A DNA stretch of 64,000 bases from Bacillales bacterium (GCA_016288795.1 JAEELI010000017.1:85856-149855), one strand, 5' to 3'. Positions 7,738 to 33,303 are shown, numbered from the stretch's first letter. The notes: generated from the sequence alone by a model not told the origin. Translations and numbers: made by a program.

Positions 7738-10700
7738 ATGAAAAATTTTGAAAGTCTAGATGGAAGAGAAGTTCATTTAGTAGAAAAAGACATTCGCGAA
7801 AGATGGCAAAAAGAAAATATATTAGATAAATGTATTGAGAACCGAAAAGATAATGATAATTGGGTGTTTTATGATGGACCAATTTATGCTAATGCAGCTC
7901 CAGGTATCCACCACGTATTTGCTAAAACAATTAAAGATGCTTTTTGTAAATATAAAACAATGCAAGGATATCGTGTTTTAAGAAAGATTGGGTTGGATAC
8001 CCACGGATTACCAATTGAAGTTAATGTAGAAAAGAAATTAGGTTTTACAAGTAAGGCTGATATTGAAAAATTTGGAGTAGAGAACTTTTGTAAAGAATGT
8101 AATAAAGCAACAGCAATCAATATTGGAGAAATAAATAAAGTTACTGATATGATGGGCCAATTCATTGATTGTGATAATCCTTATGTAACATGCTCAAATG
8201 ATTATATAGAATCTGAATGGTGGATTATTAATGAATTAAATAAAAAAGGATTAATATACCATGGCTCTAAGGTTTTACCTTATTGTCCTCGTTGTGGAAC
8301 TGAACTTTCTTCAAATGAAGTAGCTCAAGGTTATGAAAGTGTTTCTGTAAATACTGTCATAGTGCCATTTAAATTAGTAAATGAAGATACTTATGTACTT
8401 GTTTGGACAACTACACCTTGGACATTAATGGCAAATGTGGCACTTTGCGTTAATCCAAGTTTAGAATATTTAAAAGTTCAATCAATGGGCTATAACTTCA
8501 TTGTTGGAGCATCTCTAGCTAATTCTGTTTTAGGAGATGAATATGAAGTTTTAGATAAATATAAAGGCAAAGACTTAGTAGGATTAAAATATGAACAATT
8601 ATTACCTTTTGTTAAAGTAGAAGGAAAATCTTTTGAAATAGTTGCTGATAATTATGTTACAGATTCTGATGGAACAGGTATTGTTCACATAGCTCCTGCA
8701 TATGGTGAAGATGACAATCGTGTTTGTCGTGAAAATGATATTACTTTTATAAATCCAGTTGGAAAAGATGGAAAATATAATGAAGGTCCTTGGAAGGGTA
8801 GAGTTGTTACATCTTCAGAGTTAGAATTAGATATTATTAAATATTTAAAAGAAAATGATAAATTATTCAAAAAGATTAAAATGACTCATGATTATCCACA
8901 TTGTTGGCGTTGTAAAGAACCATTAATTTATTATGCTAAACCAGCTTGGTATGTAAAAAATACTAAATTAAAAGAAGAAATAATAAAAGAAAACAATAAA
9001 ATTAATTGGTTCCCAGCATATGTTGGTGAAAAACGTTTTGGTAACTGGTTGGATAACATGATTGATTGGAGCATTTCTCGTAATCGTTACTGGGGATGTC
9101 CACTTCCTATTTGGACTTGTGAATGTGGAAACTTTGAATCAATTGGTTCATTAGACGAATTACAAGAAAGACTAATTGAAGATATAGATGTTAGAAAAAT
9201 AGAATTACATAGACCTTATGTAGATGATTTACATATAAAGTGTTCTAAATGTGGAAAAACAATGGAAAGAGTTAAAGATGTTATGGACGTTTGGTTTGAC
9301 TCAGGGGCAATGCCATATGCTCAATTCCATTATCCATTTGAAAATAAAGAGTTATTTGAAAGTCAATTTCCTGCAGATTTCATTGCCGAGGGAATAGATC
9401 AAACTAGAGGATGGTTCTATGTTTTACTAGTAATATCTACACTATTAAGTGGTAAGTCTTCATTTAAAAATGTTGTTGTTAATGATATGATGCTAGATAA
9501 AAATGGCAAGAAAATGAGCAAATCACTTGGTAACATTGTTAATCCAGTGGATATTATGACTAAATATGGAGCAGATGAAGTTAGATTCTATTTAATGTAT
9601 GCCAGCCCTGTATGGACACCATTAAAGTTTGATGAAGAAGGCATAAAAGAAGTTCATTCTAAATTCTTTAATCCATTTAAAAACACTTATAATTTCTTCA
9701 GCATGTATGCCACTACTGATAATATTGATATTAAAGATTGTCAAATTGCAGTTAAAGATAGGGAAGAAATTGATAAATGGTTATTATCAAGATACAATTC
9801 TTTATTAAAGAATGTTTACAATAGTTATGAAGAATACGATCTAAATAAAGTAGTTAAATATGTAACAAACTTTGTATCCGATGATTTATCTAATTGGTAT
9901 ATTAGAAGATGCCGTAATCGTTTCTGGGGAAGTGAATTGAATAATTCTAAAAAATCAGTTTATATAACTACTTATGAAGTTTTAGTAGGATTATCAAAGA
10001 TAATCGCTCCAATAACTCCATACATTTCTGAAGAAATATATACAAAACTAACTAAAGAATATTCTGTTCATACTTCAAATTTTCCTAAATTTGATGAGAA
10101 ATTGATAGATTTAAAACTAGAAGAAAAAATGGATTATGTTAGAAATTTAATTTCTATGGGAAGAATGGTTAGAGAAGAATCTAAAATTAAAGTTAGAACT
10201 CCATTAAGTGAAGCAATTATAGATAAAAATATCTATGATAAAATATCTGATTTAATACCATTAATAGAAGAAGAATTAAATGTTAAAAAGTTAGTTAAAG
10301 AAGATAATCTATCTAGGTATATGAATATGACTATTAAACCAAACTACAAAGTAGTTGGGCGTATATTCGGTTCTAAATTAAAAGAATATGAAGAATTCTT
10401 AAGTTCTTCAGATATAGATGAATTAAATAAAGAAAATGTAGTATTCAACGGAACTACTATAACTAAAGATATGTTTGAAGTTAAAATATCTTCTAAAGAA
10501 GGATTTAATGTTGGAGTTTTAAATAATCTATTTATAGTTTTAAATACTAATTTAACTGAAGATTTAATAAATGAAGGTCATGCTAGGGAATTCGTTTCTA
10601 AGATTCAAAACATGCGAAAAGAAAATTCATTTGAGATTAGTGATAGAATAAATATTTATTATAGTAGTTTAGAATTTAAACCAATAGTTGATCATTTTGG

Positions 10701-27755: not shown

Positions 27756-27773
27756 TTATGTTATAATAAAGGT

Positions 27774-27850
27774 GTTCTTGTAGCTTAGTTGGATAAAGCG
27801 GATGCCTCCGACGCATCAGATTGAGGGTTCAAATCCCTCCAAGAACACCA
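27774..27850 (+). tRNA. tRNA-Arg (anticodon CCG), CCA encoded
   Basis: cloverleaf folded by hand: acceptor GTTCTTG/CAAGAAC, D-stem GCTT/AAGC, anticodon stem GATGC/GCATC with loop CTCCGAC, T-arm GAGGG-TTCAAAT-CCCTC. Confidence 0.85.
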
Positions 27851-27868
27851 TTTTTATTGGGAGGGTTT

Positions 27869-29668
27869 ATGGATAACGAAAAAAAATTAAAAATAGTTGA
27901 AAGCATTAAAAAGGGAAGTAACATCCTGTTGGAAGAATATAAGATTAGTGAGTCGGATTTATTGGATATATCTAATATTCTTTTACAAGATAGTAATTTT
28001 GAAGTTAAAGAATTAATAGATATTATATTGAATAATCCAATAGGAGAAAATTGTGATTGGAATATTGGTAGCCTTTTACAACACTTTGATTATAGTGAAA
28101 TAGTTGAGGCATTATTAAATGTTAAACCAAACAAAAGAGGATACTTATATGATTCTATAGGATTTTGTTGGGCAATGGGTGAATGTCCATACAAGGATGA
28201 TGAGGTTATCCAATTTTTATATGAGGTTATATATAATAGTAGAAATCCAGAAGCTTGGTGGAGAGCTGGATTTGCTTTGGAAAAGATAACTGGAAAAAAT
28301 GCAATTAATAATTTAAAAAGAAGTTTAAAAAATAATGAAACTATTTCGCTTCAGGAAAGTTTGAAAGATTTATCAAATAAAAAGAACATAATTAATATAC
28401 TTTTAAAATCTAATAGTAGTGCTATTAAAGATGAAGTTTATCCAGCATTAAAAGAAAAGTTTAATGAATCAACTACTGAAAAAGAACTTATAAATATAAT
28501 ATGGTTACTAGGAAGATTACGCTTGTATGATAGAGAGATGTTAGAAAAATCGATGCAATTATTAGATACCACCAAGAGTTACGAAATGAAATATTATATT
28601 TTACAAGCAATGATTGATGATCCGAAAAATATGTATTTGGAGCATTTTAAAAAATACCTTTATTCTGATGATAAATTAATTAAAAAGATGGCTATTGCTG
28701 GTATAGGAGAAATTGGAACTAGCATTGAAGCAATGGAATTAGAAAAAGCATTAGAAACAGAGAGTGATCCTTCAGTTGTCTCTTCATTGACCAAAGCTAT
28801 TTACATGATTAAAGGAAATTATTTTAATGAAAGAAACAATTATATTCGAAAATATATGGTTAATGAGAATGGATTAATCGGTGATGATTCAGATAAATGG
28901 TATGCTGATGCATCAATTTACAATTTGTTTTCTGAAGCCGAAGATCCACAAAATTTATGCTTTTCAATGATTTTTAAAAGAATATTACAAAGCAAATTAG
29001 AAATTAACAATCCTATAGATTTAGCAACTGGAACTGGTCGTGCAGCCAAATATGTACTAAATAATATTCCATATACAGGAACGCTATATGCTGTAGATTA
29101 TAGTCAACAAATGTTGGATTATTTTGAGAGAACCATAAATAGACAAAAGTATTATGTTAAAAGTATAGAGTTAGTTCATTCAAAGATACAAGATTTTAAA
29201 TTGCCAAATTATGAAAAGTCATCATTTATTATTAGTTCTTTTGGGTTCCCAAGTAAAATAACTGACGAAGAAAGATGCTTTGAAGAATTAAATAACGTAT
29301 ATGAACTACTTTCTGATGAAGGAGTATTTGTCACTTTAGGATGGGACGAAACGTTTAATGATGACTTAAATAATATGTGGTATAAGTATATCCCTGATAA
29401 TATAAAAGCTTCTAATTTTGAAGAATGGAGAAGGGCAAGGGAGAGTCTAATTAAGACGCCAAGAAATTGTGATTTAACTTGGTATAGAACTAATATAAGA
29501 GTTCCTTTATTATATGATACTTTAGAAGAAACAATTAATGTAATGGGACATTTGTTTGGAAGAGATGCTGCTATAGAAATATTGAATAATAAAAAAACCA
29601 TGTGGTGGATGTCTTTAGGTATTACTTGGGATACCAAAGAGAGTTTGGCTAGAGCGTTAAAGAAGTAG
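27869..29668 (+). CDS. fusion protein: N-terminal alpha-helical (HEAT-like) repeat region + C-terminal class I SAM-dependent methyltransferase
   Basis: start moved to MDNEKK (GGAGGG RBS) because track start overlaps the tRNA; MTase motif I-like IDLATGTGRAAKYV and post-I acidic AVDYSQQML. Confidence 0.5.
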   Translation: MDNEKKLKIVESIKKGSNILLEEYKISESDLLDISNILLQDSNFEVKELIDIILNNPIGENCDWNIGSLLQHFDYSEIVEALLNVKPNKRGYLYDSIGFCWAMGECPYKDDEVIQFLYEVIYNSRNPEAWWRAGFALEKITGKNAINNLKRSLKNNETISLQESLKDLSNKKNIINILLKSNSSAIKDEVYPALKEKFNESTTEKELINIIWLLGRLRLYDREMLEKSMQLLDTTKSYEMKYYILQAMIDDPKNMYLEHFKKYLYSDDKLIKKMAIAGIGEIGTSIEAMELEKALETESDPSVVSSLTKAIYMIKGNYFNERNNYIRKYMVNENGLIGDDSDKWYADASIYNLFSEAEDPQNLCFSMIFKRILQSKLEINNPIDLATGTGRAAKYVLNNIPYTGTLYAVDYSQQMLDYFERTINRQKYYVKSIELVHSKIQDFKLPNYEKSSFIISSFGFPSKITDEERCFEELNNVYELLSDEGVFVTLGWDETFNDDLNNMWYKYIPDNIKASNFEEWRRARESLIKTPRNCDLTWYRTNIRVPLLYDTLEETINVMGHLFGRDAAIEILNNKKTMWWMSLGITWDTKESLARALKK

Positions 29669-29685
29669 GTTAAAAAGAGGTAAAT

Positions 29686-30252
29686 ATGAAAGAAATAGAA
29701 ATACTAGTTGAAGTTTTTGATGAAAAAGCTAAAGTTAAAAGGGCCTTAAAAAAGTATAATTATAAAGGTATAAAAAAAACTATAGATGAATATTATTATG
29801 ATCCATTAAGGAGTGAACTAAAACCTGATAAAAACAACAAAATTTATAATTGCTTACGAGTTAGAGAAAAAGATGGTATTTATTCATTCACATATAAAGA
29901 TGATGTGTATGAAAATGGTATATGGATATATTCTAACGAGTATGAAACTATAGTTGAATCAAAAGACATAGTAAAAAACATAATTGAAAAATTAGGATTA
30001 ATAAAGTTTATAGAAATCAACAATAAAAAAGAAACTTATGTAACAGATAAGTATGAAATAGTATTGGAAGATGTAAAAGATTTAGGATTGTTTTTAGAAG
30101 TAGAATCAGTTTCTAAAGACGAAGATGTTTTAAAAGTAAAAAAAGAAATACAAGAGTTTATTGATTCTCTAAATATCAAAGTTTCTGAAGAATTAAATAT
30201 GGGAAAACCAGAGATGTTTTTAAAAAAACATAACATAAAAATAGATAATTAG
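29686..30252 (+). CDS. CYTH-domain (triphosphate tunnel metalloenzyme / CyaB-like) protein
   Basis: N-terminal EIEIL (ExExK-like, Lys replaced) and C-terminal YEIVLEDVKDLGLFLEVE matching CYTH end motif. Confidence 0.55.
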   Translation: MKEIEILVEVFDEKAKVKRALKKYNYKGIKKTIDEYYYDPLRSELKPDKNNKIYNCLRVREKDGIYSFTYKDDVYENGIWIYSNEYETIVESKDIVKNIIEKLGLIKFIEINNKKETYVTDKYEIVLEDVKDLGLFLEVESVSKDEDVLKVKKEIQEFIDSLNIKVSEELNMGKPEMFLKKHNIKIDN

Positions 30253-30329
30253 TATATATCAATAAGCAGATGCTATACTGAATGCACTAGAAAAACAATA
30301 TATTAGCAACTTAGAAAGGTCGTGATAAT

Positions 30330-31052
30330 TTGAAAACATATATTGTTTTAGATGAATCTGGAGCCATGCATTTAAAAAATGAAAGATATTTTATAATCGG
30401 TGGCTTTGTTACTCAAGAATTACATAAAGTAACCTCAGCTCACAAAAGGGTTGAAGCTGTAGTAAAAAGAATTAAAAATATTCCTTTGAATAATAGAGTA
30501 GAATTAAAATCTTCAAAAATAAGCTTTAGTCAACAATTGATGTTTATAAATGAGTTATTATCTATAAAGGGAGTAATTCCAATAGTTATTATTGTTGATA
30601 AAGATAATTTAACTAGATTTACAGCTTCAGAGAATATGGCTTATAATTTCTTTGTTAAAAATATGCTAAATTATTTATTTAAATGTCCAATTAAACTATT
30701 AAAAAATAAAGATATAGAATTAAGAGTAGATAACCGGAGCACTTCTGTGAAGGCTAGAAAAGATTTAGAAACATTTTTAACTTGGGAGTTTGAAAAGAAG
30801 AAATTAGATTTAAAAGTGCACTACCTAAATTCTAAGTATAATCGTGATATCCAAATGGCTGACTATATTGCTAATATGTTTTGGAAAAAATATAATTCTC
30901 CTAAAATAGAAATAACATCAAGAATAAAGAAAATCAAAAAAATATATATATCCAAATTTCCTTACAAAGATTTTGGTAAAAATCCTAGTTTAAGAGAGAA
31001 AACTATTGTTAATTATAACAATAATGATATAATACTTAAAGAAGACCTTTAA
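30330..31052 (+). CDS. DUF3800-like protein (TTG start)
   Basis: N-terminal YIVLDESG motif typical of DUF3800; family call from memory. Confidence 0.45.
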   Translation: MKTYIVLDESGAMHLKNERYFIIGGFVTQELHKVTSAHKRVEAVVKRIKNIPLNNRVELKSSKISFSQQLMFINELLSIKGVIPIVIIVDKDNLTRFTASENMAYNFFVKNMLNYLFKCPIKLLKNKDIELRVDNRSTSVKARKDLETFLTWEFEKKKLDLKVHYLNSKYNRDIQMADYIANMFWKKYNSPKIEITSRIKKIKKIYISKFPYKDFGKNPSLREKTIVNYNNNDIILKEDL

Positions 31053-31106
31053 GGAGTATCGAATTAATATAAATAAGTTCTAATCGTATGTTAAGTACGA
31101 GATCCC

Positions 31107-31150
31107 TTGGGCAAGAAAAGTAACCTGTAAAGGTTATTTTTCTTTGCCTA
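31107..31150. terminator. long imperfect hairpin between DUF3800-like gene and pcrA
   Basis: GGCAAGAAAAG ... CTTTTCTTTGCC arms enclosing nested palindrome AACCTGTAAAGGTT. Confidence 0.4.
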
Positions 31151-31216
31151 AAATATAGTGTTTTTAATGACTTGAATGTTAGAAAATGATATAATTTATC
31201 TAGAGGTAGATGGCTC

Positions 31217-33303
31217 ATGAATAATTATTTAGACAACCTTAATAAAGAACAATTGCAAGCAGTAAAACATATAGATGGACCTTGTTTAGTAGTGGCAGGA
31301 GCAGGTTCTGGTAAAACTAAAGTCTTAACAACTAGAATTGCTTATTTAATAAATCAGGGAATACCAAGTGGTTCTATTTTAGCTATTACTTTTACTAATA
31401 AAGCTAGTAAAGAAATGAAAGATAGAATTAATAAATTAGTCGATAACAATTATGCTTTTGTTGGAACATTTCATTCTTTTGGATTGAGATTACTAAAAGA
31501 AAACTATGAAGAAGTAGGATTACATAAAAACTTTACTATTCTAGATAGTGATGATGTTTTATCTGTTATAAAAAAAATAATGAAGAATTTAGATATTAAT
31601 ATTAAAGAGATATCTCCATCATACATTAGAAATAGAATTAGTTTTATTAAAAATGAGATGCTAACTGATGCCGAAATAACCAGATTTTTTGATACTGAAG
31701 TAGAAAAAATAGCAGCAAAAGTCTATTTCGAATATGAAAAAGTTTTAAAGAAAAATAATGCCGTTGATTTTGATGATTTGTTAAAAAAACCAGTTGAATT
31801 GTTTCAAAAGAATGATGATATATTAAATAAATATCAAGATAAGTATCAATACATATTAATAGATGAATATCAAGATACCAATGAAGTTCAATATAAACTT
31901 GTTAAATTGTTGGCCAGTAAATATCGTAATATATTTGTAGTAGGGGATCAAAACCAAGCAATTTATGGTTTTAGACAAGCTAATTATAAAAATATTGTAA
32001 ATTTTGAAAATGATTATGAAGAGGCTAAAGTATTTGTTTTAAATCAAAACTATCGTAGCACAACTAATATATTAAATGTTGCTAATTCGGTTATTTCTCA
32101 TAATGAACATCGTAAAGAAGTAAACTTGTTTAGTGATTTAGGTGAAGGCGTTAAAATAAAATATTTAAGAAGTAATGATGATAAGCAAGAAGTAAATATA
32201 GTTGTTAATGAAATAAAAGACTTATTAAATAATGGGTATAAAAAAGAAGATATAGCGATATTCTATCGCACTAATGCTCAGTCAAGAATATATGAAGAAG
32301 CAATGTTAAAAAATAATTATGCTTATAAAGTAGTTGGAGCGTTTTATTTCTATAAAAGAAAAGAAATTAAAGATTTAATTGCTTATTTAAGATTAATTAA
32401 TAATCATGATGATGATGTAGCATTAAAAAGGATTATTAATGAACCAAAAAGAGGTATTGGTTTAAAGACTATAGAAAATCTAGAAAAAGAAGCAGAGAAT
32501 AATCAAACATCAATATTTGAAACAATATCTAAAGGAAAAGAATTAGAATTTAAAAAATTGATTGAAACTTTAACCAAAGATAGTGAATCACTATCACTTA
32601 CAGAAATCATAGATAATGTTTTAGATAAAACTGGAATGAAAGATAGTTTATCTAATATGAGTACTGAAGATATAGATAGATTAGATTATTTGATGGAATT
32701 TAGAAGTATAACAGAAGAATATCAAAATAGAACAGGAAGTGTTAATCTTCAAGATTTCTTAGATGAAATAAGCCTAATATCAGATATATCAGAACATAAA
32801 GAAGAAAGTGATGCAATAACATTGATGACTTTGCATTCTGCCAAGGGCCTAGAGTTTAAAGTAGTGTTCATGGTAGGAATGGAAGATGGTTTATTACCAC
32901 ACTCTAATTCATTTGATGAAAAAGATGGGATTGAAGAAGAAAGAAGATTATGTTATGTTGGTATTACAAGGGCTAAAGAAAGATTATATTTGACTAATGC
33001 TAAATATAGAATGCTCTATGGAAAAGATATTTCTAATCCACCATCTAGATTTATTGCTGAAATAGATAAAAAATATTTAGATTCAAGTGAACTACAAGGA
33101 GAAGAAAATAGATTAAATAAAGAATTACTGTATGGTGATGATAATGAAATATATAAATGTGGAGATGTAGTTAATCATTTATCATTTGGTAGAGGCGTAG
33201 TTATATCACATGATGAGAGATTTGTAACCGTGGCATTTAATAAAAGATTTGGAATTAAGAAATTTTTAAAAAACTATAAAGGTTTAATAAAGGAGGAAAA
33301 GAA

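Follow-up and report, generated by a model that had tools for sequence, protein, structure and literature searches.

What lies between a tRNA-Arg(CCG) gene and pcrA in the genome of an uncultured, Bacilli-type bacterium, and do the genes found there belong together? The locus occupies positions 27,774 to 31,216 of a 64,000-nucleotide (nt) stretch of Bacillales bacterium DNA (GCA_016288795.1 JAEELI010000017.1:85856-149855), referred to below as the window. The tRNA gene is followed by genes for a HEAT-repeat protein fused to an S-adenosylmethionine (SAM)-dependent methyltransferase, for a CYTH (triphosphate-tunnel) protein and for a DUF3800 protein, and then by a long hairpin. The original prediction treated the three protein genes as one candidate system carried by an island at the tRNA. 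The analyses presented here lead to a different arrangement, in which the methyltransferase and CYTH genes are an obligate pair that was inserted behind the tRNA, and the DUF3800 gene is a resident with a structured RNA as its own partner. The features that this account needs first are the following, with protein lengths in amino acids (aa) and the evidence in brackets.

27774-27850, + strand: tRNA-Arg(CCG) (ARAGORN; Rfam tRNA, 71.1 bits)
27869-29668, + strand: HEAT-methyltransferase gene, 599 aa, upstream member of the inserted pair (open reading frame (ORF), Pfam, profile search, AlphaFold2 (AF2) model)
29686-30252, + strand: CYTH/triphosphate-tunnel gene, 188 aa, ExExL subfamily, downstream member of the inserted pair (PF01928, TIGR00318, alignment, PDB profile matches)
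30330-31052, + strand: DUF3800 gene, 240 aa, TTG start, resident (PF12686, 6e-10; phrog_9243, 2e-16)

All of these lie on a single strand, with gaps of 18, 17, 77 and 164 nt along the series tRNA, methyltransferase, CYTH, DUF3800 and pcrA. Each feature that had been proposed for this locus (the tRNA, the HEAT plus methyltransferase fusion, CYTH, DUF3800, the hairpin and pcrA) was confirmed in its position. The host genome has a guanine-plus-cytosine (GC) content of about 27%, and its relatives are labelled "Bacilli bacterium", Ca. Faecisoma and Ca. Coprosoma.

An obligate methyltransferase-CYTH gene pair

We examined 28 genome loci carrying the HEAT-methyltransferase, plus further metagenome contexts. 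The hosts of the genome loci, all metagenome-assembled genomes (MAGs), comprise Bacilli, gut Alphaproteobacteria, Saccharibacteria, Kerfeld-, Uhr- and Kaiserbacteria, Gammaproteobacteria, Chitinophagales, Thermoanaerobaculia and Nanoarchaeota. In 24 of the 28, the gene directly 3' of the methyltransferase gene encodes a CYTH protein of the same subfamily, and this holds for every further metagenome context examined. Exceptions to this order among the genome loci are two at a contig edge, one with the genes reversed and two without CYTH; on the Nanoarchaeota contig, CYTH precedes the methyltransferase. The methyltransferase stop codon is overlapped by the CYTH start in 20 of 29 loci and the remaining gaps are at most 17 nt, which argues for translational coupling and for a complex of the two proteins.

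No third recurrent partner emerged when the neighbours were clustered all against all and 122 of them were surveyed with Pfam. Additional neighbour families that seemed to recur were either antisense shadows of the pair's own genes or ABC transporters of a generic kind, and the Bacilli cassettes have no conserved flanks or inverted repeats outside the coding regions. DUF3800 occurs in none of the 30 pair-containing loci, and various bacterial phyla and the Nanoarchaeota share the pair itself at 35-75% identity. We conclude that the methyltransferase and CYTH genes are an obligate gene pair, independent of DUF3800. The co-conservation for which the original prediction proposed to test the trio is thus real for the methyltransferase with CYTH, which are linked at essentially every locus, and DUF3800 is linked to them at none.

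The papers found in literature searches do not describe the pair; nothing relevant came up for the pair itself, for a part of CYTH proteins in defence or in conjugation, or for a link between CYTH and deoxyribosyltransferases. A check against defence systems, which the original prediction had suggested, was negative for all three proteins: no PADLOC-DB 2.0 family matched the methyltransferase, CYTH or DUF3800 at E<=1. When the 122 neighbours were scanned with PADLOC, defence genes were sporadic (a type IIG restriction-modification (R-M) enzyme, AbiLi/AbiLii). In 6 of about 28 loci, the window among them, the pair has a tRNA gene within approximately 700 nt.

Insertion at tRNA-Arg(CCG) and horizontal spread

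In the closest relatives (L048, L049, L064, L067 and an NCBI assembly, with 83% PcrA identity; loci are given by L numbers) the gene order is SepF-DivIVA-CdsA-RseP-tRNA-Arg(CCG)-DUF3800-RNA-PcrA-NTP_transferase-LigA, where DUF3800 begins 36 nt past the tRNA and the methyltransferase and CYTH are absent. The tRNA-Arg(CCG) is kept at the RseP/PcrA junction of the closest of them (L048:6978-7054), with 65 of 77 nt identical to the window. At 79% PcrA identity (L050, 5628-8001; L051; L052), a GT4 glycosyltransferase gene lies between RseP and PcrA, and tRNA-Arg, DUF3800 and the pair are all missing. Bacilli that carry the pair at 70-73% identity hold it elsewhere, never adjoining RseP or PcrA. Because the nearest relative has RseP-tRNA-Arg-DUF3800-RNA-PcrA without the pair, we read the pair at tRNA-Arg(CCG) as a 2.4-kb insertion. 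The suspicion of foreign DNA at this tRNA agrees with the absence of the two-gene pair from this site in all seven of these relatives (L048/49/64/67 and L050-52), but it does not extend to DUF3800, which L048/49/64/67 contain. What lies at the RseP-PcrA junction varies among the relatives.

A search for an att-like repeat of the tRNA 3' end had also been suggested. The last 15-23 nt of the tRNA have no second copy in the 64 kb, even when 2-3 mismatches are allowed, and general searches for direct and inverted repeats over 27-32 kb gave chance matches only. No recombinase or integrase ORF was found in the 25-35 kb region of the window.

Elsewhere in the Bacilli, the pair has a -10-like box upstream and, at most loci examined, a terminator hairpin downstream. 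In the window we recognised no promoter of its own upstream of the pair and no terminator before DUF3800, so read-through from the promoter of the tRNA, for which a -10-like TATAAT can be read at 27762-27767, probably drives expression of the pair.

The same absence of a terminator between CYTH and DUF3800 makes co-transcription of all three genes possible in the window and, together with their shared strand, their tight spacing and the accessory, patchy distribution of each, is what might recommend them as a single island-borne system at a tRNA-Arg integration site. We give this reading next to no credence. The pair is missing from every DUF3800 locus examined, just as DUF3800 is missing from the 30 pair loci; the nearest relative carries DUF3800 at this very site without the pair; the window has yielded neither an att repeat nor an integrase; and DUF3800 has a partner of its own in the RNA described below.

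The pair spreads horizontally among very different prokaryotes, conjugative elements included. The flanks of its hosts range in GC content from 0.24 to 0.62. In 28 of 30 loci the pair is poorer in GC than the DNA on either side (0.36 versus 0.51 at L032; 0.48 versus 0.62 at L024), with differences that reach 15 percentage points, a consistent signature of foreign DNA. At L035 it is flanked by a TraG/TrwB-type coupling protein and by a serine recombinase, and at L038/39 it lies between ArdC with an orphan C5 DNA methylase on one side and a TrwC relaxase on the other, with an integrase nearby. At L005/6 it is part of a Bacteroidota-type element with an integrase, HU-HIG and VapE/DUF3874. Other neighbours include serine recombinases, DUF2924, TraG, the type IIG R-M enzyme and AbiL, and the majority of neighbourhoods are housekeeping. 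A phage or plasmid origin was considered and rejected, since the pair has no relatives among INPHARED phages, PLSDB plasmids (tblastn) or IMG/VR.

The pair on one contig labelled 'uncultured Muribaculaceae' (L008, CAZVUP010000008.1) has 71% identity with those of Bacilli and lies between flanks of 26% GC. This looks like a mis-binned contig that is really from Bacilli, and the mismatch indicates that taxon labels of MAGs need care.

A CYTH subfamily with ExExL in place of ExExK

PF01928 matches the CYTH protein at 7.3e-11 over residues 1-165. Its nearest PDB profile match is the triphosphate tunnel metalloenzyme (TTM) SaTTM (7ns8, 2e-17), followed by PH1819 (2een) and the class IV adenylate cyclase (AC-IV) YpAC-IV (3n0y, 1e-9). 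The N-terminus reads MKEIEIL (E3-I-E5-I-L7), which places Leu7 at the lysine position of ExExK, so that this hallmark of the superfamily is absent, as the original prediction had noticed. A second tunnel lysine, equivalent to K111 of YpAC-IV, is Asn113 here. The residues that are kept are E3, E5, R58, R60, K71, E85, E87, K115, E128, E138, E140.

The replacement of the lysine is real and is not peculiar to this protein. In an exhaustive search across 1.84 billion representatives, the best 150 matches included about 119 full-length proteins, of which 108 have ExExL and none has ExExK. The replacement thus defines a whole subfamily, with at least 100 clusters at 50% identity. Within the paired family, Leu7 (across 21 paired homologues), R58-V-R60 and E138-V-E140 are invariant, Cys56 is nearly so, and the metal-binding glutamates are all invariant, as are most of the basic tunnel residues.

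Automated annotation would name this protein a class IV adenylate cyclase, as it passes the cut-off of the cyaB equivalog model NCBIfam TIGR00318 marginally (59.3 bits against 57.95). AC-IV enzymes need HFxxxxExExK, a small residue in place of the first arginine of xRxR, and ExA rather than ExE (Vogt et al., PMC8233210). In the window protein only two residues precede the motif, leaving no room for HF, and both R58 and E140 are kept. The β8 ExE binds metals 1 and 2 and the RxR arginines bind the β and γ phosphates (PMC8233210). As the HF motif is lacking and both arginines of CxRxR and the β8 ExE are retained, we predict that the CYTH protein is a TTM-type phosphohydrolase and not an adenylate cyclase; at the level of sequence, these residue determinants outweigh the marginal TIGR00318 score, which they contradict. 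A cAMP signalling unit built on a CyaB-type cyclase is accordingly highly improbable in our view, despite that score and the match to YpAC-IV at 1e-9: all three of the published determinants fail, and the closest solved relative, SaTTM, is a triphosphatase without cyclase activity. An identity as thiamine triphosphatase was also discarded, because those enzymes require W/YxRxR, whose aromatic residue stacks on the thiazole (PMC8233210), and the window protein has Cys56 at this position.

The loss of the lysine had been suggested to mean either an altered substrate or a non-catalytic variant. We consider an altered substrate, less negatively charged or end-blocked, to be more likely than a dead enzyme, because the plant TTM1/2 cluster, which prefers pyrophosphate, is also without ExExK (PMC8233210).

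The HEAT-methyltransferase

Translation of the methyltransferase gene is assigned to ATG 27869, which is preceded by GGAGGG at 27860-27865 and gives a length of 599 aa in agreement with homologues of 598-600 aa. The TTG at 27821 offered by a mechanical ORF call was rejected as it falls within the tRNA. The protein consists of a HEAT solenoid (approximately residues 1-330), a conserved linker (NENGLIxDDSDKWY) and a C-terminal class I SAM methyltransferase domain of about 260 residues. The family profile matches alphaRep HEAT proteins (E=7e-14), and the AF2 model contains about 22 consecutive helices over residues 3-329, with a predicted local distance difference test (pLDDT) score of 91.8. Pfam matches are to Methyltransf_25/11, Ubie_methyltran and, just under its cut-off, HEAT_2 (27.4 against 27.7 bits). 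The homologues form 215 clusters at 43-75% identity; the window protein itself had no exact match in the contig index.

The catalytic domain has motif I (DLATGTGR) and an intact acidic post-I motif (AVD), as expected of class I SAM methyltransferases, together with an invariant SFGFP loop; many Trp, Lys and Arg residues are invariant in the solenoid. The invariant positions include D63, W64, N65, W130, W131, K150, E333-Y345 and S456-P461. By structural neighbours, the fold of the domain is nearest to generic small-molecule methyltransferases and not to DNA or rRNA methyltransferases. A PHROG named 'tRNA methyltransferase' matches it at 6e-9, and no specific NCBIfam family cut-off is reached. 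The architecture is as unusual as had been supposed, for the PDB holds no structure that combines HEAT repeats with a methyltransferase.

Possible substrate and role of the pair

Clues to the substrate come from variants of the pair. In three independent clusters at 50% identity (P0380, P0455, P0468), an ExExL CYTH domain is fused to a C-terminal Nuc_deoxyrib_tr/DUF4406 domain (PF05014). One such fusion with a nucleoside deoxyribosyltransferase (NDT)-like domain, in Saccharibacteria (L026, 1542-2528), is still located 3' of the HEAT-methyltransferase, and a standalone DUF4406 gene (L023:312-758) stands immediately upstream of another pair. In a Chitinophagales MAG, a Q_salvage/Qng1-like gene (L016:9744-10712; 3.6e-61) takes the place of CYTH, 13 nt after the methyltransferase; Qng1 cuts the glycosidic bond of a nucleoside 5'-monophosphate (PMC9881137). 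Kinases immediately adjacent to the pair are adenylate-kinase-like (L011), a P-loop kinase (L014) and a nucleoside diphosphate kinase (NDK; L022). Taken together, the fusions and the nucleotide-enzyme neighbours favour a nucleotide substrate.

The adenylate-kinase-like gene that follows CYTH in Ca. Coprosoma (L011:7696-8322) has no in-frame ATG. An in-frame start needs a shift within the run of ten A at the CYTH stop, and a sequencing error or a non-ATG start is possible.

We tentatively propose, with a confidence that falls a little short of even, that the locus is a composite of a resident tRNA/DUF3800/RNA unit and an inserted methyltransferase-CYTH pair whose products act on one nucleotide-type substrate. 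The resident unit between rseP and pcrA comprises the tRNA-Arg(CCG), the gene for an RNase-H2-like DUF3800 protein and a DUF3800-I-like RNA, as it does in the nearest relative, and the inserted unit is a translationally coupled two-gene cassette directly after the tRNA. Linkage, mobility, insertion, residue pattern and fusions are observed; the class of the substrate and the order of the steps we infer as follows. The two proteins may share a single nucleotide-type substrate, of which CYTH would hydrolyse the phosphoanhydride chain by a two-metal TTM mechanism; its tunnel, with two cationic residues fewer, would suit a polyphosphate that is end-blocked or carries less negative charge. This molecule would also be methylated by the methyltransferase, whose HEAT solenoid and linker are a putative binding platform for the substrate or a partner. 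In some lineages a nucleoside monophosphate (NMP) N-glycosidase, either an NDT/DUF4406 domain fused to CYTH or a Qng1-like replacement of it, would release the base, and in others nucleotide kinases might extend the pathway by re-phosphorylation. The net role of the pair could then be to edit, sanitise or salvage the nucleotide pool.

Several observations weigh against this proposal. Nucleotide-enzyme neighbours occur in about 6 of 30 loci, and NDK and the adenylate kinase could be housekeeping genes that are adjacent by chance. HEAT solenoids mostly bind macromolecules. Loss of the ExExK lysine could mean that CYTH is a non-catalytic, ligand-binding protein. As for the insertion, there are no repeats, recombinase or conserved flanks to explain it and the window pair has no compositional (GC) anomaly; loss of the pair in the sister lineage is an alternative, although a less parsimonious one.

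Methylation of RNA at a 5' phosphate has precedents in MePCE and BCDIN3D, and the pair might form a comparable, capping-like module, in which the TTM trims a 5'-triphosphate and the HEAT-methyltransferase holds the RNA and methylates its 5' phosphate or first nucleotide, so that transcripts or tRNAs are protected or marked. Eukaryotic and viral RNA triphosphatases that partner cap methyltransferases have the CYTH/TTM fold (PMC8233210), a tunnel with two cationic residues fewer would fit a terminal phosphate that is esterified, and the invariant Trp, Lys and Arg residues are abundant on the solenoid. The PHROG match of the methyltransferase domain and the tRNA genes near 6 of about 28 pairs point in the same direction, but proximity to tRNAs is equally explained by mobile DNA inserting near tRNA genes. 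The CYTH protein matches PF01928 rather than the Cet1-like PF02940, the neighbour surveys linked no guanylyltransferase or RNA-binding domain to the pair, and the fusions and neighbours are mononucleotide enzymes (NDT, Qng1-like, kinases) and not RNA enzymes. We therefore rate a capping-like role as quite unlikely.

Alternatively, the HEAT repeats, typical scaffolds of protein interaction, may recruit a universal macromolecular target (a protein, or rRNA or tRNA) to the methyltransferase, with CYTH as a regulatory subunit that gates it by sensing a phosphorylated ligand or by making or consuming a small signal; the pair would then be a conflict or addiction module. This would suit its presence on conjugative elements near ArdC and an orphan DNA methylase or between a coupling protein and a recombinase, and the few defence neighbours (type IIG R-M, AbiLi/AbiLii), and the binding of cAMP to the SAM-dependent methyltransferase TrmD offers a precedent (PMC5217690). 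We doubt it nonetheless. The invariant metal glutamates and most of the basic tunnel residues argue for catalysis by CYTH, neither protein has a PADLOC match, most neighbourhoods are housekeeping, the phage, plasmid and IMG/VR collections lack the pair, and the recurrent fusions to nucleotide N-glycosidases would be left unexplained.

A shared nucleotide-type substrate thus remains our preferred reading. The pair could, in addition, be a self-contained, mobile module that makes or destroys a methylated nucleotide in genetic conflict, through editing of the (deoxy)nucleoside triphosphate ((d)NTP) pool or through methyl-capping of 5'-phosphorylated RNA, which we regard as unlikely. If the (d)NTP version were true, incoming conjugative DNA or host nucleic acid would carry or avoid the modification. 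Such a module would represent a nucleotide chemistry so far undescribed in prokaryotes and common to the candidate phyla radiation (CPR), DPANN archaea, gut Bacilli and conjugative elements. More generally, the pair spans bacterial phyla, Nanoarchaeota and conjugative elements and is enriched in reduced-genome organisms, and its substrate could reveal a new route of nucleotide modification, salvage or sanitation, or a mechanism of conflict.

The DUF3800 gene and its structured RNA

The DUF3800 protein contains the DE motif (D8-E9), the QxxD motif (Q175-D178) and an RNase H2-like fold, as is canonical for DUF3800 proteins. Homologues with about 65% identity stand alone at other chromosomal sites in related Bacilli. 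DUF3800 genes are associated with DUF3800-I RNAs (Weinberg et al. 2017, PMC5737381), and the spacer between DUF3800 and pcrA in the window holds a related RNA. The features of this region are as follows.

31027-31156, + strand: DUF3800-I-like structured RNA (RF02969 alignment; own covariance model)
31110-31149, + strand: 40-nt hairpin with arms GGCAAGAAAAGTAACC/GGTTATTTTTCTTTGCC, predicted terminator stem-loop of the DUF3800-I-like RNA (sequence, covariation)
31167-31195: pcrA promoter-like site (promoter scan)
31217: pcrA start

The 164-nt spacer before pcrA is strongly conserved 3' of DUF3800 genes at four other chromosomal sites. All positions (1-115) of the Rfam model RF02969 (DUF3800-I) align to it, with a score of 29.6 bits that does not reach the gathering threshold of 44.2 (E=0.007 in a 251-nt search); the related copies L062, L053, L056, L059 and L065 were unmatched at E<=0.01 in a 36-kb search. 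A metagenome search with a 26-nt core of the RNA recovered 20 further copies. The resulting 21-sequence alignment supports five helices including the terminator, with 32 pairs of which 16 show compensatory changes. In this alignment 96.8% of cells are paired, compared with 42-47% when it is slid by one or two columns and 27-28% at three, and the observed covariation was reached by none of 500 shuffles.

Searched with a covariance model built from these sequences, the window yields a single copy, at 31027-31156 (118.5 bits). A multi-stem core that includes the UCGUAUGUUAAGUACGA hairpin is followed by the terminator at the 3' end, and the window copy is without a small variable hairpin. A conserved TATAAT precedes the conserved 5' end of the RNA by 7-10 nt, at 31028-31033 in the window, so that the final codons of DUF3800 share sequence with the promoter and the 5' end; the predicted transcript runs from about 31040 to 31150. 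This conserved box, inside the end of the DUF3800 ORF, suggests that the RNA has its own promoter. Helix 5, the terminator hairpin, covaries in 6 of its 7 pairs. The long hairpin is thus best interpreted, from its sequence and covariation, as the intrinsic terminator of the DUF3800-I-like RNA and not a boundary marker, and the model of the locus is corrected to this effect.

The RNA adjoins DUF3800 in the window, at L040, L043, L045 and L048, and in 11 of the 20 metagenome loci. At several chromosomal sites, DUF3800 cassettes of this clade, with or without the RNA, are located directly 3' of same-strand tRNA genes, with gaps of 36-200 nt; the upstream tRNAs are tRNA-Arg(CCG), tRNA-Leu(CAA), tRNA-Thr(GGU) and a four-tRNA cluster. 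The tRNA-adjacent cassettes are listed here.

Window 27774-31156
L048:6978-7958
L040:6770-7868
L043:6724-7860
L045:6548-8982
L053, L057, L066 and L070

Four metagenome copies (L061, L062, L068, L072) have no tRNA. The adjacency suggests either targeting of the 3' flanks of tRNAs or expression by read-through from them, and its recurrence at several independent sites provides a lead on an RNA/protein pair known since 2017.

Some copies depart from this arrangement. The RNA occurs without an intact DUF3800 gene at L054:1340-1475, L056:1749-2061 and L058:1730-2042. At L054 an internal deletion within the ORF joins the eight opening codons of DUF3800 (ATGAAAACTTATATTGTGTTAGAT) straight to the core of the RNA, and at L056 and L058 the RNA lies about 100 nt after tRNA-Leu, with DUF3800 absent. 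A three-part variant is found at L045:7001-8982, where DUF3800 is followed by an overlapping DUF3644 plus EC042_2821 gene and then by the RNA (8847-8982).

Inside pcrA, at 32906-33003 (+ strand), there is a sub-threshold match to the Rfam entry n00280 (55.3 bits against a gathering threshold of 65.2, E=3e-7), described in Rfam as 'Clostridioides difficile sRNA included into helicase gene'. The match probably reflects conserved coding sequence rather than an RNA gene.

Comparison with known systems

The window CYTH protein shares with the CYTH-family TTMs (SaTTM/Saci_0718, CthTTM, NeuTTM) the PF01928 fold, the metal-binding glutamates of β1 and β8 and the RxR arginines. It differs from them in having ExExL throughout its subfamily, an Asn at the equivalent of YpAC-IV K111, the coupling to a HEAT-methyltransferase and, in some members, NDT-like fusions. 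CyaB (TIGR00318) belongs to the same superfamily, and the window protein scores marginally above its cut-off, but it is without HFxxxxExExK and keeps the gate-keeper arginine and the ExE; an annotation as cyclase is to be avoided.

Phages edit their nucleotide pools with sets such as T4 dCTPase/dCMP hydroxymethylase/dNMP kinase and MazZ/DatZ/PurZ. Like these, the pair combines on mobile DNA a specific (d)NTP phosphohydrolase, here a predicted one, with a neighbouring putative base-modifying enzyme and in some cases with NMP kinases, and CYTH triphosphatases have been proposed to have a nucleotide-pool role in jumbo phages (PMC7824862). The modifying enzyme here is, however, a HEAT-fused class I SAM methyltransferase and not a thymidylate-synthase-like or PurA-like protein, and the phage collections do not contain the pair. 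The N-glycosidases in variants of the pair suggest release of the base rather than its incorporation into DNA. From mRNA capping, in which a Cet1-type TTM acts with a cap methyltransferase (as in vaccinia D1), the pair differs by having no guanylyltransferase, by a CYTH protein outside the Cet1-like family and by mononucleotide-enzyme neighbours.

DUF3800 proteins also accompany retron type VII and Cas12a2/a3, but no reverse transcriptase or Cas12 is found near the DUF3800 gene of the window. The closest counterpart of the resident unit is DUF3800 with DUF3800-I RNA: in both, a canonical DUF3800 gene is followed by a terminator-ended RNA, and that of the window aligns to RF02969 over its full length, while scoring under the gathering threshold and having one hairpin fewer. 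The DUF3800 gene and RNA of the window are a divergent member of this known association.

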